A DNA stretch of 64,000 nt from Acidimicrobiia bacterium (GCA_009842675.1 VYEX01000062.1:102295-166294), one strand, 5' to 3'. Counted from the first letter of the stretch, positions 51,364 to 58,695 are shown. Program-made: numbers and translations. Notes: generated by a model from the sequence alone, not told the origin.

Positions 51364-51499
51364 AGTGAGCCTCCGTCATAGCGCCGTCGCTGCCATCGCC
51401 GAGTCTAAAGATTGCCTCTTGCAGCCGCCCGATCACCGGCTGATTGTCCGTGTACGCTTACGGGGTTGACATCACGTATCAAGCATGAGAGGCGGGTCC

Positions 51500-53197
51500 A
51501 TGTCTTTTCCTTCTGACCTTGAGATCGCCCGCGGGGCGAACCTCCGACCACTAACCGAAATCGCCGAAGAAGCCGGCATCCCGGTCGAGATGCTGGAGCC
51601 CTACGGGGCAGGGGCGGCCAAGATCAGCCTGGATGCGATTGAGGCTCTGTCTGATCGGCCCCGAGCCCGCTACGTGGTGGTGACCGCCATCACCCCAACG
51701 CCATTGGGCGAGGGCAAAACCACCACCACCGTGGGGCTGGGTCAAGGATTCGGGCACATCAACAAGAAGGCGACCATCGCCATCCGCCAGCCCTCACTGG
51801 GGCCGACGTTCGGCATCAAGGGCGGTGCCGCCGGCGGCGGCTACAGCCAGGTGGTGCCCATGGAGCTGTTCAACCTCCACCTCACCGGTGACATGCACGC
51901 GGTGACCGCGGCCCACAACATGTGCTCGGCCATGCTGGATGCCCACATCTACCACGGCAACGAATCAGGCCTGGATCTGCACAACATCACCTGGCGCCGG
52001 GTGGTGGACATCAACGACCGGGCGCTGCGCAACATCGTGCTCGGTCTGGGCGGTCGGCTCGACGGTATCCCTCGGGAGAGCGGATTCGACATCACCGCGG
52101 CATCGGAGGTGATGGCCACCCTGGCGCTGGCTACATCTCTATCCGACTTGCGGGCCCGTTTGGGACGCACCGTGGTGGGCTATACCAAAGCTGGCGATCC
52201 GGTGACCGCGGAGGACTTGAAGGCCGCCGGGGCCATGGCCGTTTTGCTGAAGGACGCCCTCAAGCCCAACCTCATGCAAACCCTGGAGGGTGGCCCCGCC
52301 CTGGTGCACACCGGGCCGTTCGGCAACATCGCCACCGGCAACTCCTCCATCGTGGCCGACCGAATCGCCATCCACACCGGCGACTTCTTGGTAACCGAGG
52401 CCGGATTCGGCGCCGACATGGGGGCTGAGCGCTTCTTCAACATCAAGTGCCGCTACTCGGGCTTGGCCCCCGACGCCGCGGTGATGGTGGCCACCGTGCG
52501 GGGGCTGAAGGCCCATTCCGGCAACCACCGCATTGTCGCCGGGCGTCCCCTGCCAGAGGCGCTGCTGGCCGAGAACCCCGACGAGGTGCACGCTGGAGGA
52601 GACAACCTCCGCAAGCAGCTCTCCAACATGAAGGCTCACGGGGTGACCCCGGTGGTGGCCATCAACGCCTTCCCCGGCGACCACGATGCCGACTTGGCCG
52701 CCATCGGCGAGATCGCCGACGAGTACGGCGCCCGCTGTGCGATCACCACCCACTTCTCCGACGGCGGCGCGGGGGCGGCCCAGTTGGCCGAGGCGGTGGC
52801 CGAGGCCTGCGAGGAGCCCAGCTCGTTCAAGGTGCTGTACGAGGATGATCTGTCGCTCAAGGACAAGATCGCCGCGGTAGCCACCACGGTGTATGGCGCC
52901 GACGACGTGGAGTATTCAGCCACGGCCAACCGCCAGCTCGACACCTACGAGAATGCCGGTTTCGGCCACCTCCCGGTGTGCATAGCCAAGACCCACTTGT
53001 CCATCTCGTCCGACCCCTCCCTCAAGGGCGCTCCTACAGGCTGGACCCTGCCGGTGCGGGAGGTGCGGGCCTCGGTGGGCGCAGGGTTCGTCTACCCCAT
53101 CTGCGGCGATATGCGCACCATGCCCGGCCTCGGCCGCCAACCCGCCGCCATGGGCATCGACCTCGACGAGAACGGAGAAATCGTCGGCCTGAGCTAG
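51500..53197 (+). CDS. fhs: formate--tetrahydrofolate ligase
   Basis: Contains SDLEIA...VTAITPTPLGEGKTTTTVGL...GPTFGIKGGAAGGGY... Start taken at MSFPSD. Confidence 0.95.
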   Translation: MSFPSDLEIARGANLRPLTEIAEEAGIPVEMLEPYGAGAAKISLDAIEALSDRPRARYVVVTAITPTPLGEGKTTTTVGLGQGFGHINKKATIAIRQPSLGPTFGIKGGAAGGGYSQVVPMELFNLHLTGDMHAVTAAHNMCSAMLDAHIYHGNESGLDLHNITWRRVVDINDRALRNIVLGLGGRLDGIPRESGFDITAASEVMATLALATSLSDLRARLGRTVVGYTKAGDPVTAEDLKAAGAMAVLLKDALKPNLMQTLEGGPALVHTGPFGNIATGNSSIVADRIAIHTGDFLVTEAGFGADMGAERFFNIKCRYSGLAPDAAVMVATVRGLKAHSGNHRIVAGRPLPEALLAENPDEVHAGGDNLRKQLSNMKAHGVTPVVAINAFPGDHDADLAAIGEIADEYGARCAITTHFSDGGAGAAQLAEAVAEACEEPSSFKVLYEDDLSLKDKIAAVATTVYGADDVEYSATANRQLDTYENAGFGHLPVCIAKTHLSISSDPSLKGAPTGWTLPVREVRASVGAGFVYPICGDMRTMPGLGRQPAAMGIDLDENGEIVGLS

Positions 53198-53262
53198 CAA
53201 GGGTCGAGGCCGTGCGGGACAGATAGGCTTAATCGACCTCAGGGTGCCTCTGGGGGAAAGGG

Positions 53263-55188
53263 GTGTTTATGGCGAGGCGGGAACGTTTGACCGTGCCGAT
53301 GGTGCGGGACAACGGGAGCCTGCGAGAAGCGACGTGGGACGAGGCCCTGTCACGGGCCGCGACCGGGTTCAACCAGGTGCTCGAACAGCATGGACCACAG
53401 GCGTTCGGGATGTTCAGCTGCTCCAAGGCCACCAACGAGATGAACTACATCGCCCAGAAGTTCATCCGCACGGTGGTGGGCTCCAACAACATCGACTCCT
53501 GCAACCGAACTTGACACGCTCCTTCGGTCGTCGGTCTGGCGACAGTGTTCGGAGCGGGAGGGGGCACGAGCTCCTATCAGGAGATTGAGGAGGCCGACCT
53601 GATCCTCCTGTGGGGGTCCAACGCCCGCGAGGCCCATCCCATCTTCTTCCATCACCTGCTAAAGGGCATCGACAACGGTGCCCGCATGTACTGCGTCGAC
53701 CCCCGCTACACCTCCTCGGCCCAATTCTCCGACGTGTGGGTGGGCATCGACGTGGGCACCGACATCGCCCTAGCCAACGGCATCGGCCGGGAGATCATCT
53801 ACGCCGGTTTGGCCAACCAAGACTTCATCGACCACTCCACCCAGGGATTCGAGGCCTACGCCGCCTCTGTGGAGCCGTTCACCCCCGACGCGGTGGCCGA
53901 CATCTGCGGCATCCCCGCCGAGGTGGTGGTGGAGATGGCCCACGCCTACGCCACCGCTGATACCGCTCAAATCTTGTGGACCCTGGGCATCACCGAGCAC
54001 CACAACGCGGTGGACAATGTGCTGTCACTGTGCAATCTGGCTCTGCTCACCGGCCATGTGGGTCGGTGGGGGTCGGGGCTGGTGCCACTGCGGGGTCAGA
54101 ACAACGTGCAGGGCGGCGGCGACATGGGGGCCATCCCCAACAAATTTCCCGGATTCGCCAGCGTGGACGACCCCGACCATCGGGGCCGTTTCGAGGCCGC
54201 CTACGGTCGGGAGCTCAACCCGGTGCCCGGTTGGCACCTCACGCTGATGTTCGAAGCCATGGAGCGGGGCGACCTGAGGGCGCTGTATGTGATCGGCGAG
54301 AACCCCGCCGATTCCGAGGCCGATGTGGCTCACGCCCGGGCCCAAATGGAAGGCCTGGACATCTTGGTGGTGCAGGACATTCTGATGACCCGCACCGCGG
54401 AGATGGCCGACGTGGTGCTGCCCGCATCGGTGGCCTGGGCAGAGAGCGACGGCACCGTGACCTCCAGCGAGCGCAGGGTGCAGCGAGTGCGGCCTGCGGT
54501 TTCGCCCCCCGGCCAGGCTCGTCACGACATCGACATCTTGTGCGATATGGCCGTGGCCATGGGCGCCGAACTCGGTCCTCGCGACCCGGAGGCCGCCTGG
54601 GACGAGCTGCGCTCTCTGTCGGCTATGCACGGGGGCATGGCCTGGGAGCGCTTGGAAGCTGCTGGCGGTTTGCAATGGCCATGTCCCGACGAGGACCACC
54701 CCGGCAGTGTTTTCCTCCACGGCTGGCTGTGGGCTGACGATCTGGAGGGCCGCGACCCGGCTCCGTTCTCGGTGCTGGAACACGAGGGGCCGACTGAAGA
54801 ATTGAGCGAGGAGTTTCCCCTGCGGCTCACCACCGGGCGGGCGCTGGACTCCTACAACACCGGGGTGCAGAGCGGGAACTACGACTCGCCGCTGCGGTTT
54901 GCCGGGTTGGATCTCAATCCGACCGATGCCGCCGACTTGGGCATTGCCGACGGTGACCGGGTGCGAGTGTCCTCCCCACGGGGTTCAGTGGAGATGAATG
55001 TCCGGCTGGTATCGAGCCTGCCGACAGGGTTGGCCTTCACCACTTTGCACCACCCTGAGTTGATCGACGTGAACGTGCTCACCAACCCCGACTGGGACCC
55101 GAAATCCGGCACCGCCGAGTTCAAGGCGGCAGCGGTGCGGGTTGAGCTGGTCGATGCCCCCGAGACCGCGGGGGCCACCGTTGGCTGA
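53263..55188 (+). CDS. fdhA: formate dehydrogenase catalytic (Mo/W-bis-PGD) subunit, selenocysteine at 53512-53514; lacks the usual N-terminal Fe-S domains
   Basis: ORFs 53263..53514 and 53545..55188 are in frame across a TGA. The context NNIDSCNRT-U-HAPSVVGLATVFG parallels E. coli FdhF NNVDCCARV-U-HGPSV. Downstream MopB motifs and a C-terminal molybdopterin dinucleotide-binding domain are present. Confidence 0.88.
53527..53543 (+). promoter_or_regulatory. bacterial SECIS apical hairpin of fdhA
   Basis: GUCGUC-GGUCU-GGCGAC puts the loop G and U at nt 23-24 from the UGA, with the same GGUCU loop sequence as the E. coli fdhF SECIS. A possible lower stem pairs GCUCC (53518) with GGAGC (53551). 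Confidence 0.7.
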
Positions 55189-56932
55189 CCTCCACTTCGG
55201 CGACGATCAGCCCACTGAAGCCGAGTTGGCCGCCATCGACGCCATCGTCTCCCCAGCCGATGCCGCCACTGTCACCGAGACTGAACGGGTCGTGCGCGGA
55301 GGTCGCATCCGGCGCCAGGGACTGCGCCATTTGCTCCTGCCGGTGTTGCATTCGCTTCAGCATGAAATCGGCTGGATCAGCCCTGGTGGTTTGAACGGCG
55401 CCGCCAAGCGGCTGGGGGTGCCGCCCGCCGAGGCCTATGGCGTGGCCACGTTCTATGAACTGCTGCGCACGACCGACCCCGGACACACCAATGACGCGGT
55501 CCACGTGTGCGTCGACCCGTCGTGTGCTCTGGCCGGCAACGAAGAGCTGCGGGAGTCGCTGGAGGCCAGCGGCGCCAAGGTCCACAACAGCCCGTGCCTC
55601 GGTCAGTGCGAACGCGCCCCTGCGCTGTTTGTCCAGGGAGTAGGGCGACCCGACCGGGTGCCGGCTGACGATGACGAGGACTTCCGTTTGCCCCAAGCGG
55701 GCGACCCAGGACTGCGGGTGCTCAGCCGGGTTGGGGTGGTGGATTCAACCTCTTTGGACTCCTACCGGGAACATGGTGGCTATCAGGCGTTGGCTTCTGC
55801 CATCGAAATGGGGCCTGATGCGGTGATCTCAGCCATCTCCGACTCCGGCCTGTCGGGGCGGGGTGGGGCGGCGTTTCCCACTGGCATCAAGTGGCGGGCT
55901 GTCGCCGACGAACCCGGTCCGGACAAGCACGTGGTGGCCAACTGCGACGAGTCGGAACCCGGCACCTTCAAAGACAGGATCTTGTGCGAACACGACCCTT
56001 TCGCGGTCATCGAGTCAATGACAATCGCTGGGCTGGCTACTGGGTCTCCCCACGGGTGGATCTACATCCGAGGCGAATACCCCCGAGCTACCGCCCGACT
56101 AGAGGGAGCCATCGCCCAAGCCCGGGCCGCGGGCCTGTTGGGAGACGACGTGGCCGGCAGTGGTCAGCGATTCGACATCGAGCTTCGCCGAGGGGCAGGG
56201 GCCTACATCTGCGGTGAGGAGACGGCGCTCTTCAATTCCATCGAGGGCTTCCGGGGCGAGCCCCGCAACAAGCCCCCCTTCCCCACCACGCATGGTCTGT
56301 TCAACCAGCCCACCGCCATCAACAATCCCGAGACCCTGATCAACGTTCTCGACATCGTGACCAACGGCCCCGACGCCTACCGCTCGGTGGGCACCGAGCG
56401 CTCCCCCGGCACCCGGCTGTTCTGCCTGTCGGGCCGAATAGGAGTGCCCGGCCTCTACGAAGTGCCGTTCGGCACCACGCTGGGCGAGTTGATTGAGCTG
56501 GCCGGAGGGTCGGTCGGCTCGCTGGCCGCGGTATTGCTGGGGGGCGCGGCCGGAGTGTTTGTCGGTTCTGACGCCCTGGATATGCCCCTTACCTTGGAGG
56601 ATGCCCGGGAGGCCGGGGCCACCCTGGGTTCAGGCGTGGTCACCGTGTTCGACGACACCGTGGACATGGAGGCGGTGGTCGTCCGCATCGCCGAATTCTT
56701 CCGGGACGAGTCGTGCGGCCAGTGTGTGCCCTGCCGGGTCGGCACCCAGCGCCAGCACGAGGTGCTCGTGGAGCTGCAAGGCTCCGGGCAGGCGCTCACC
56801 CCCCAGCGAGCCGAGCTGATCGACGACATGGCCCTGGCCATGGTGGATGCCTCCATCTGCGGTCTCGGGCACACCGCGGCCTCCGCGGTGCGCTCCGCGA
56901 TCGACCTGGGCCTGATAGGAAATAGCTCGTGA
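55154..56932 (+). CDS. NAD-dependent formate dehydrogenase diaphorase subunit, NuoE-like/NuoF-like fusion
   Basis: The N-terminal 2Fe-2S thioredoxin-like part has CVDPSC...CLGQC. The NuoF core has GRGGAAFPTG.KW, NCDESEPGTFKDR and ESCGQCVPCR. The start is ambiguous among TTG 55142, ATG 55154 and TTG 55181. Confidence 0.88.
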   Translation: MPPRPRGPPLADLHFGDDQPTEAELAAIDAIVSPADAATVTETERVVRGGRIRRQGLRHLLLPVLHSLQHEIGWISPGGLNGAAKRLGVPPAEAYGVATFYELLRTTDPGHTNDAVHVCVDPSCALAGNEELRESLEASGAKVHNSPCLGQCERAPALFVQGVGRPDRVPADDDEDFRLPQAGDPGLRVLSRVGVVDSTSLDSYREHGGYQALASAIEMGPDAVISAISDSGLSGRGGAAFPTGIKWRAVADEPGPDKHVVANCDESEPGTFKDRILCEHDPFAVIESMTIAGLATGSPHGWIYIRGEYPRATARLEGAIAQARAAGLLGDDVAGSGQRFDIELRRGAGAYICGEETALFNSIEGFRGEPRNKPPFPTTHGLFNQPTAINNPETLINVLDIVTNGPDAYRSVGTERSPGTRLFCLSGRIGVPGLYEVPFGTTLGELIELAGGSVGSLAAVLLGGAAGVFVGSDALDMPLTLEDAREAGATLGSGVVTVFDDTVDMEAVVVRIAEFFRDESCGQCVPCRVGTQRQHEVLVELQGSGQALTPQRAELIDDMALAMVDASICGLGHTAASAVRSAIDLGLIGNSS

Positions 56933-57768
56933 GCCCTGCTGTCACCGAGACTGCGGTCACCATCCGGGTCGACGGCCAAGAAGTGGCCGTGCCCGAAGGA
57001 GCCACCATCCTGGATGCCTGCGACGCCGCGGGCATCGATACCCCCACCATCTGCTACGGCCCCACCCTCACCCCGGTAAACGTGTGCCGGGTGTGCGTCG
57101 TGGAGCTGGACGGCAGCCGGGCCCTGGTCCCCTCCTGCTCCCGCCCTGCCGAGGAGGGCATGGTGGTCCACACCGACAGCGAGCGGGTCCGCCACAGCCG
57201 CAAGATGGTCATTGAATTCTTGGCCACCGGTGTCGACGTGTCCCAGGCCAATGAGCTGGGCCAGTGGGCCGAGCACTACGGGGCCGACCCTCACCGCCAC
57301 GTCCCCGGCGGCGAGACCATGAACGAGCCGGTGCGGGTACAGGACAACCTCTACATCCGGGACTACGACAAGTGCGTGCTGTGCTACCGCTGCGTAGAGG
57401 CCTGCGGCGACGACGCCCAGCACACCTACGCCATCTCGGTGGCCGGCCGGGGCTTCGGCGCCCGCATCTCCACCGAGTTCGACGTGACCCTCCCCGACTC
57501 GGCCTGCGTGTACTGCGGCAACTGCGTGGCGGTCTGCCCCACCAACGCCCTCCAGTTCAAGACCGAGTTCGACCTCCGTGAGGAGGGCGACTGGCGCCCC
57601 GAGGACCAAACCGTGACCCAAACCGTGTGCTCCTACTGCGGCGTGGGCTGCAACCTCGAACTCCACGTGCAGGACAACCAGATCGTCAAATGCACCTCCC
57701 CCGACGACCACGACGTCACCCGAGGCAACCTCTGCATCAAAGGCCGCTTCGGCTGGAACTACGTGTGA
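56929..57768 (+). CDS. NuoG-like Fe-S module of formate dehydrogenase alpha (2Fe-2S, 4Fe-4S ferredoxin clusters and the MopB-type 4Fe-4S domain) as a separate ORF
   Basis: Contains ICYGP...CRVCVV..., CVLCYRCVEAC, CVYCGNCVAVCP and then CSYCGVGCNLELHV...GNLCIKGRFG immediately before the stop. The GTGA overlap links it to the preceding gene. Confidence 0.85.
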   Translation: MSPAVTETAVTIRVDGQEVAVPEGATILDACDAAGIDTPTICYGPTLTPVNVCRVCVVELDGSRALVPSCSRPAEEGMVVHTDSERVRHSRKMVIEFLATGVDVSQANELGQWAEHYGADPHRHVPGGETMNEPVRVQDNLYIRDYDKCVLCYRCVEACGDDAQHTYAISVAGRGFGARISTEFDVTLPDSACVYCGNCVAVCPTNALQFKTEFDLREEGDWRPEDQTVTQTVCSYCGVGCNLELHVQDNQIVKCTSPDDHDVTRGNLCIKGRFGWNYV

Positions 57769-57837
57769 TGCTCTCCCCTCCCGAAGCGGATTGGGAGCGT
57801 CCTTCGACCACCAATCATCACAACTAAGTTGGGGGCG

Positions 57838-58695
57838 ATGACTGCTATCAAACTCGACGGCGAAATGCTGTCAGCTGAAATCAAAGAGGGCCTGCGCGAG
57901 CGGATCGCCGCGCTGGCCGAGAAGGGCGTGACCCCGGGGTTGGGCACGCTGTTGGTGGGCGACGACGGGCCGTCGGCCAACTATGTGGCCATGAAGCACC
58001 GCGACAGCGAGGAGCTGGGAATGGGTTCTCGGGAGGTCCACCTCCCTGCTGATGCGTCCCAGGAAGAGGTCGACGCCGTGGTGGACGACTTCAACGCCGA
58101 TCCGGCGGTGGACGCCTACATCATGCAGTACCCCTTCCCAGACCATCTTGACTACGAGACAGCCTTGTTGCGGGTGCTGCCTGAGAAGGATGCCGATGGG
58201 CTCCATCCGGTGAACCTGGGACGGTTGGTGCAGGGGGTGGACGCACCTCTGGCCTGCACTCCTCGGGGCATCCAGTTGATGCTGGAGCGCTACGAGATCC
58301 CAATCGCCGGCCAGCACGTGGTGATCATCGGGCGGGGGCTTACCATCGGCCGGCCGTTGGCCAACTTGTTGTCGCTGAAGCGGCCCAACGCCAACGCCGC
58401 AGTCACCGTGGTCCACACCGGGGCGGGCGACATCTCCCGCTATACCAAGAACGCCGACATCCTCATTGCCGCGGCCGGGGCGCCCCGCATGGTGAAGGCC
58501 GACATGGTCAAGCCCGGCGCAGCGGTGGTGGCCGCCGGGGTGAGCTTTGCCGACGGAAAGTTGGTGTCGGATGTGGACGACGACGTGGCAGAGGTAGCGG
58601 GCTGGCTTTCGCCGCGAATCGGCGGCGTGGGGCCGATGACCCGTACCATGCTTATGGCCAACACCGTGGCCGCCGCCGAACGGGCCGTGGGCTGA
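57838..58695 (+). CDS. folD: bifunctional methylenetetrahydrofolate dehydrogenase/methenyltetrahydrofolate cyclohydrolase
   Basis: Contains LVGDDGPSANYVAMK...DADGLHPVNLGRL...CTPRG...VVIIGRG..IGRPLA...GGVGPMT. Confidence 0.93.
   Translation: MTAIKLDGEMLSAEIKEGLRERIAALAEKGVTPGLGTLLVGDDGPSANYVAMKHRDSEELGMGSREVHLPADASQEEVDAVVDDFNADPAVDAYIMQYPFPDHLDYETALLRVLPEKDADGLHPVNLGRLVQGVDAPLACTPRGIQLMLERYEIPIAGQHVVIIGRGLTIGRPLANLLSLKRPNANAAVTVVHTGAGDISRYTKNADILIAAAGAPRMVKADMVKPGAAVVAAGVSFADGKLVSDVDDDVAEVAGWLSPRIGGVGPMTRTMLMANTVAAAERAVG

Follow-up and report, generated by a model that had tools for sequence, protein, structure and literature searches.

Three adjacent genes of an Acidimicrobiia bacterium probably encode a selenocysteine-dependent formate dehydrogenase with a split and reordered alpha subunit

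A stretch of 64,000 nucleotides (nt) from an Acidimicrobiia bacterium (GCA_009842675.1 VYEX01000062.1:102295-166294), hereafter the window, carries between positions 53,263 and 57,768 three adjacent genes that very probably specify one enzyme: a cytoplasmic, soluble, selenocysteine (Sec)-dependent formate dehydrogenase (FDH) of three subunits, linked to nicotinamide adenine dinucleotide (NAD) and of the FdsABG / Fdh1AB kind. The NuoG-like Fe-S domains are not fused to the catalytic domains in this operon; the two are encoded by separate genes, with the gene for a NuoE-NuoF fusion in between. In the order of their genes, the products are referred to here as alpha (catalytic), beta (NuoE-NuoF, or NuoEF) and gamma (Fe-S). 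An earlier description of the region, made without database searches (the sequence-only reading), had proposed a functional split enzyme, as opposed to decay, with a clean break at a domain boundary. Both proposals are supported by the results below. It had made no mention of an in-frame UGA codon accompanied by a selenocysteine insertion sequence (SECIS), of the lack of a His-ligated cluster motif, or of the wide distribution of the arrangement.

The alpha protein (639 amino acids, aa) contains only the domains Molybdopterin (PF00384, residues 6-428, E-value 2e-69) and Molydop_binding (PF01568, residues 518-621, E-value 5e-23), and the Pfam scan detected no Fe-S domain in it. Translation starts more likely at the ATG at 53269 than at the alternative GTG at 53263, and the protein opens with MARRERLTVPMVR...TWDEAL, which is to say right after the position of the missing 4Fe-4S domain, as previously described. 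Its active site comprises Sec82 and His83 (NRT-U-HAPS) together with Arg275, in the motif LRGQNNVQG at residue 274. When compared with the NCBIfam model TIGR01591 (672 positions), alpha matches positions 50-672 (E-value 3e-183, 610.5 bits) and gamma covers positions 1-48, so that the domain holding the MopB proximal [4Fe-4S] cluster (FS0) resides in a polypeptide separate from the catalytic chain. In a search of solved structures, residues 3-278 of gamma aligned to residues 18-302 of Rhodobacter capsulatus FdsA, and residues 3-631 of alpha to residues 305-937. The cut maps between about residues 303 and 304 of FdsA, with nothing lost or duplicated. Since the coverage of both FdsA and TIGR01591 by the two halves is nearly contiguous, the break is clean. 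A further N-terminal Fe-S exon hidden upstream of the catalytic gene can be dismissed because only 71 nt separate this gene from the preceding stop codon, that of fhs.

Gamma is the separate 279-aa Fe-S protein that the sequence-only reading had placed downstream of the NuoE/F fusion. It comprises Fer2_4 (PF13510), two 4Fe-4S ferredoxin motifs (PF12838) and Molybdop_Fe4S4 (PF04879, residues 228-279). The corresponding ligands are those of a [2Fe-2S] cluster (C42-C70), of ferredoxin-type [4Fe-4S] clusters at C149 and C193, and of FS0 (C234-x2-C-x3-C-x27-C-x-K). The protein terminates at the junction itself with the MopB cluster motif CIKGRFG, its last residues being CIKGRFGWNYV. A motif scan of gamma revealed no His-x3-Cys-x2-Cys-x5-Cys sequence, the signature of a His-ligated [4Fe-4S] cluster. 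Of 26 split sequences none has this signature, and it occurs in 20 of 30 fused sequences (two false matches discounted); the fused relatives nearest to the split forms likewise do without it. Beta matches the NCBIfam models nuoF_fam (E-value 3e-124) and nuoE_fam and contains 2Fe-2S_thioredx (PF01257), Complex1_51K (PF01512), SLBB (PF10531) and NADH_4Fe-4S (PF10589), bringing a [2Fe-2S] cluster, a site for flavin mononucleotide (FMN) and NAD(H), and a [4Fe-4S] cluster into one protein. No extra ferredoxin domains were detected by the Pfam scan in its NuoF part. This composition argues for a simple NAD-linked enzyme over one of the electron-bifurcating type.

Two features could suggest that the pieces are non-functional remnants of an fdhA gene, produced by decay or by a chimeric or mis-joined assembly. 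A stop codon lies within the catalytic frame, because of which the gene is listed as two open reading frames (ORFs) of 83 and 547 aa, and the alpha score falls under the curated TIGR01591 cut-off (666.25). The stop codon, however, is a TGA in the context NRT*HAPS, exactly at the position of the Sec or Cys residue that serves as metal ligand, and it is conserved: 74 of 78 related loci have TGA at this position. The remaining four have TGC, three of them being loci from large genomes that group with Streptomyces (L091, L092, L099) and one a fused form. Fifteen nt downstream from the TGA lies the hairpin GUCGUC-GGUCU-GGCGAC. In the RNAalifold consensus from 67 distinct sequences, the GGUCU loop is invariant in the sequences listed. 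The third pair of the stem shows a synonymous compensatory change from C-G to G-C in five loci (L093, L085, L067, L056, L095), and in members from other phyla (L198, L203, L204) pairing is preserved by one-sided changes. The genome also carries the full machinery for Sec synthesis and insertion, namely SelA (331 bits), the tRNA-Sec gene selC (67.5 bits), SelB (269 bits) and SelD (359 bits), and fdhD as well. Thus, the conserved UGA, the SECIS with its compensatory changes and the presence of selA, selB, selC and selD establish that the catalytic protein is a selenoprotein and not the product of a pseudogene. The selD gene of the same genome, located outside the window (G000:C39:100476-101420), has one in-frame TGA of its own, and selenophosphate synthetase is probably a selenoprotein here too. 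Within the split group, replacement of Sec by Cys was seen only in the Streptomyces lineage (TGC in L091, L092 and L099, the loci checked) and appears to be confined to it.

All three genes are under purifying selection. In comparisons with the two nearest unsaturated relatives (L014 and L038, respectively), the ratio of nonsynonymous to synonymous substitution rates (dN/dS) was 0.08 and 0.14 for the catalytic gene, 0.07 and 0.13 for the NuoEF gene, and 0.08 and 0.18 for the Fe-S gene. All ligands of the clusters are intact, and so are the Cys-x-Lys of FS0 and the Sec-His pair and Arg of the active site. The same gene order recurs in 179 loci, among them complete long-read chromosomes, cultured Streptomyces isolates and independent assemblies, which speaks against a local mis-join. 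Moreover, the three proteins of a counterpart, FDH3 of Actinomycetospora chiangmaiensis DSM 45062, have been seen by proteomics (PMC7176365). Together, these findings support a functional split enzyme; the chance that decay or faulty assembly accounts for the arrangement is negligible.

The number of loci quoted above comes from a survey of relatives. With gamma as query, at least 8000 proteins of similar length and 439 genomic loci were retrieved. The best 80 of the 439 loci are all from Acidimicrobiia, many labelled Candidatus Poriferisocius, the group to which the window belongs, and every one of these 80 that extends far enough, including several complete chromosomes, has the order catalytic, NuoEF, Fe-S. 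Among 301 Actinomycetota genomes sampled evenly, about 34 had a close homologue, and the order was the same in all 12 that were fetched. The Streptomyces version used as query returned at least 554 loci, the best 80 all from named Streptomyces species. Its operon has the Cys ligand and fdhD downstream (directly so in L091), with neither fhs nor folD as neighbours. From a divergent representative of 287 aa, the survey reached Chloroflexia and Dormiibacterota metagenome-assembled genomes (MAGs) carrying the split type, which occurs in about 10 of 121 genomes of the phylum reached in this manner. Lastly, a nucleotide pattern derived from the Sec codon and the SECIS matched many phyla, and the matches were classified by tblastn. 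The pattern was rejected as a marker of the split group, since fused Sec-containing FDHs match it too. The full three-gene order was found in MAGs labelled Acidobacteriota, Chloroflexota, Dormiibacterota, Verrucomicrobiota, Gemmatimonadota, Planctomycetota, Armatimonadota and delta proteobacterium. The spread of the split operon across bacteria is clearly wide, taking in hundreds of species and nine bacterial phylum labels, with the qualification that MAG labels can be wrong.

Of all loci fetched, 233 could be classified: 179 have the catalytic, NuoEF, Fe-S order and 54 a fused alpha. Not one of the 233 loci has the split halves adjacent or in unpermuted order. The arrangement turns out to be the norm across Acidimicrobiia and far beyond, with the separate Fe-S subunit already on record (PMC7176365). 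The order is retained even where other genes intervene among the three. In locus L052, which at first seemed devoid of a catalytic gene, the gene lies on the same contig, 4.3 kb upstream and separated from the NuoEF gene by two inserted ABC-ATPase genes. Apparent fused relatives of 840-930 aa with 62-65% identity in Actinomycetota proved to be spurious long frames of high-GC DNA; once fetched, all had the catalytic, NuoEF, Fe-S order. Conversely, representative proteins of about 360-390 aa were rejected as split forms, being fused Sec enzymes truncated at UGA by gene callers.

Some individual loci merit mention. A MAG labelled Candidatus Micrarchaeaceae archaeon (L256) carries a split operon that clusters tightly with those of a Verrucomicrobiia MAG (L227) and of L203; most likely this reflects a binning error, not an archaeal copy. 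Two split-type loci (L254, L277) broke up, in tblastn, into many short matches whose frame shifts along all three genes and are either decaying copies or uncorrected long-read assemblies. Two Acidimicrobiales loci (L188, L189) and a Streptomyces-like one (L190) contain a fused FdsA-like paralogue with the His-Cys3 motif. As these sit among the kin of split-type carriers, the fused and split types occur within the same order and family.

Trees were built from the concatenated Fe-S and catalytic parts, with split and fused rows together. In all three, the split forms make up one clade nested among fused forms. Its support in the SH-like approximate likelihood-ratio test (SH-aLRT) was 100 with 23 split and 26 fused rows and again with 41 split and 44 fused rows; with 26 split and 30 fused rows, ultrafast bootstrap (UFBoot) and SH-aLRT were 100/100. 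The split form therefore has a single evolutionary origin. Within the clade, members of different phyla are interspersed, a pattern that suggests horizontal transfer. As the nearest fused operons have NuoEF followed by the fused alpha, the split order amounts to a cyclic rotation of theirs, and as no locus among the 233 is split yet unpermuted, fission and reordering go together. In the scheme put forward by the sequence-only reading, an operon was duplicated in tandem and then trimmed at its ends, which for an ancestral NuoEF-alpha operon would give the present order. The rotation, its single origin and the missing unpermuted state all fit this scheme. However, no intermediate, be it a tandem duplicate or a catalytic gene followed by NuoEF and a full alpha, was seen among the loci fetched; a single translocation with a breakpoint at the fdhA domain boundary needs fewer steps to reach the same order; and the deepest split member, with separate NuoE and NuoF genes, requires further events. 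Duplication with deletions and a single translocation fit the data equally well, and the duplication origin is best regarded as possible and unproven.

The deepest split branch is represented by L204:3559-8005, where the genes for the catalytic protein, NuoE (166 aa), NuoF (399 aa) and the Fe-S protein follow each other with overlaps between stop and start codons. Not every member of the split clade therefore has NuoE and NuoF fused. Near this clade are also fused Cys-type alpha genes (L206-L209) for which about 7 kb of flanking DNA on each side contains no NuoEF gene.

Five genes on the + strand, from fhs to folD, follow one another across positions 51485-58695 of the window, with even G+C content throughout (Table 1). 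A promoter and terminator scan of the region gave results at chance level. The likelier start of beta is the TTG at 55181 (MADLHFGDD), which overlaps the alpha stop codon as TTGGCTGA; an earlier TTG is present at 55142, and the start was placed at 55181 because the conserved N-terminus in Streptomyces is MDLHFGDG. The GTG start codon of gamma and the stop codon of beta overlap as GTGA at 56929-56932, just as reported earlier. The upstream gene is labelled fhs from the reading of its translation, and its product is presumably formate-tetrahydrofolate ligase. The downstream gene, folD, is listed as an ORF beginning at TTG 57829. In the window and in L011, L016 and L026, folD directly follows the Fe-S gene. 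In other close Poriferisocius relatives (L012, L010, L015, L017, L019 and others) the two are 1.5-5.5 kb apart; the insert of L012 (L012:6846-9909) contains an alpha/beta-hydrolase and a DUF222-HNH endonuclease.

Table 1. Features of the split formate dehydrogenase operon and its flanking genes, in window coordinates
Feature	Position	Strand	Basis
fhs (formate-tetrahydrofolate ligase, presumed), directly upstream context gene	51485..53197	+	translation read
Catalytic subunit alpha, FdhA3-like, 639 aa	53269..55188	+	Pfam, TIGR01591, FdsA alignment, motifs
In-frame UGA (selenocysteine, Mo/W ligand)	53512..53514	+	Cys/Sec ligand position
SECIS element, apical hairpin 53527-53543 plus lower stem	53518..53555	+	RNAalifold consensus
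NuoE-NuoF fusion beta, FdhB3/Fdh1B-like, 583-596 aa	55181..56932	+	Pfam, NCBIfam
Fe-S subunit gamma, FdhC3-like, 279 aa	56929..57768	+	Pfam, FdsA alignment, motif scan
folD (methylene-tetrahydrofolate dehydrogenase/cyclohydrolase), downstream context gene	57838..58695	+	PF00763, PF02882

The likely working of the enzyme can be outlined from these features. The UGA codon would be decoded as Sec by means of the downstream SECIS hairpin and SelA, SelB, SelC and SelD. Formate would be oxidised at the Mo- or W-bis(pyranopterin guanine dinucleotide) site of alpha, formed around Sec82, His83 and Arg275. Electrons would leave through FS0, whose bridging Lys (CIKG) is on the C-terminal domain of gamma, presumably docked on alpha. 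They would cross the two ferredoxin-type [4Fe-4S] clusters of gamma to reach the [4Fe-4S] cluster and FMN of beta, where NAD+ would be reduced. A different partnership can be imagined, with gamma and beta serving other enzymes as a general diaphorase module and the catalytic protein relying on a different redox protein, given that gamma resembles HoxU, NuoG and the N-terminal modules of hydrogenases as well. This is very unlikely: gamma carries the MopB-specific Molybdop_Fe4S4 domain with its Cys-x-Lys, which is meaningful only beside a pterin domain, the catalytic protein itself lacks a cluster, and the three genes are found together in every locus that extends far enough.

The presence of fhs and folD as neighbours suggests that the three-subunit dehydrogenase participates in the oxidation of one-carbon (C1) units linked to tetrahydrofolate (THF). 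Lying between these genes, the enzyme would close this route (methylene-THF to formate to CO2) or remove formate, and a role at the end of THF-linked C1 oxidation or in formate removal is most likely. The same complex might instead act mainly as a CO2 reductase supplying formate to Fhs and FolD for C1 assimilation of the reductive glycine or serine type. The flanking genes would suit this direction too, relatives keep fhs and/or folD beside the FDH genes, and FDHs of this family that contain Sec and W/Mo can run in either direction. We consider it unlikely, since NADH is a weak reductant for CO2, the Streptomyces versions have fdhD as neighbour instead of fhs and folD, and the published A. chiangmaiensis counterpart has been tied to the removal of formate, not to its formation (PMC7176365).

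Several points weigh against the assignment of the three genes to one NAD-linked formate dehydrogenase. The assembly of the subunits, the metal used and the physiological direction are what we infer from the considerations above. The docking of FS0 in trans on alpha is a prediction, and NAD+ is the presumed acceptor solely by homology of the NuoF-like domain. The match with FDH3 is one of lengths, Sec position and domain description. Finally, alpha scores below the TIGR01591 cut-off, a shortfall due to the missing first domain.

For this genome, the outcome is chiefly a correction of annotation. Gene callers cut the selenoprotein at the UGA and give the Fe-S subunit no name beyond "2Fe-2S iron-sulfur cluster-binding protein" or "YjgC"; as a consequence, the FDH is easily missed in metabolic reconstructions of sponge symbionts. 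A large clade spanning many phyla has this arrangement as its norm, and the subunit plan has been published before (PMC7176365), so novelty is low. What interest there is attaches to the class in general, already on record, and is not specific to the window. The class as a whole retains moderate interest. Because the first cluster on the electron path lies in trans to the Mo/W site, it offers a natural test case for the assembly of MopB enzymes and the wiring of the proximal cluster, and a possible modular scaffold for engineered CO2/formate catalysts; the Cys-type Streptomyces versions should express easily. We tentatively suggest that it may be a distinct, single-origin class of NAD-linked FDH, spread horizontally to at least nine bacterial phyla, and perhaps the only natural MopB enzyme with FS0 and the bridging lysine in trans. 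It could have arisen from one rearrangement that broke fdhA at a domain boundary, and might be kept because it separates selenoprotein synthesis and cofactor loading from Fe-S and flavin assembly.

The closest described system is FDH3 of A. chiangmaiensis, presented in Table 1 and Supplementary Figure S4 of Rohwerder et al. 2020 (Front Microbiol 11:691, PMC7176365). It has the same plan: an alpha that lacks an Fe-S domain, is about 640 aa long and has Sec near residue 80, a NuoE+NuoF protein of about 600 aa and an Fe-S protein of about 300 aa. The published values are 640 aa with U80 for FdhA3, 614 aa for FdhB3 (NuoE+NuoF) and 316 aa for FdhC3 (WP_084681743.1, WP_018332443.1 and WP_018332444.1 being the protein accessions). 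FdhC3 was described as "separate but homologous", replacing the N-terminal Fe-S domain of the Methylorubrum extorquens and Cupriavidus necator alpha subunits. Proteomics detected each of the three proteins, at levels 2-3 fold higher on 2-hydroxyisobutyrate, a formate-yielding substrate, and formate removal depended on selenium, added tungsten having no effect (PMC7176365). The differences are that A. chiangmaiensis belongs to another class of Actinomycetota, that gamma of the window has 279 aa as against 316, and that the operon of the window lies between fhs and folD. That paper is silent on the rotation of the gene order, on where FS0 sits and on the distribution (PMC7176365), and a literature search for the rotated order, FS0 in trans or the distribution brought up nothing relevant; PMC7325909 was set aside as a precedent since it concerns other split genes.

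Among enzymes of known structure, the tungsten-containing FDH1 of M. extorquens AM1 (Fdh1AB; PDB 7vw6, 7e5z) has a NuoE-NuoF fusion beta with the same domain set. Gamma of the window matches residues 67-339 of Fdh1A and alpha residues 372-984, but Fdh1A is a single chain of about 990 aa and has Cys in place of Sec (PMC7176365 supplement). FdsABG(D) of R. capsulatus and C. necator (PDB 6tg9, 6tga, 9wxb) is among the closest solved relatives of both halves (E-values 3e-43 and 4e-119), with the cofactor-binding domains in the same order. It differs in its fused alpha, in having separate FdsG (NuoE-like) and FdsB (NuoF-like) subunits, and again in using Cys, not Sec; FdsA moreover contains the His-Cys3 [4Fe-4S] motif HPLDCLTCAANGDC, which the split clade lacks. 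Another natural MopB enzyme divided over two subunits is formylmethanofuran dehydrogenase (FwdB/FwdD), to whose subunit B a weak NCBIfam match was obtained. There, the cut removes the C-terminal dinucleotide-binding barrel and not the N-terminal [4Fe-4S] domain, and a NuoEF module is absent. The catalytic fold of Escherichia coli FdhF (FDH-H, PDB 1aa6; residues 60-688) resembles that of the window protein, as do its Sec-His site and the UGA followed by a SECIS hairpin, but FdhF carries FS0 in the same chain and works without NuoG-like or NuoEF partners.

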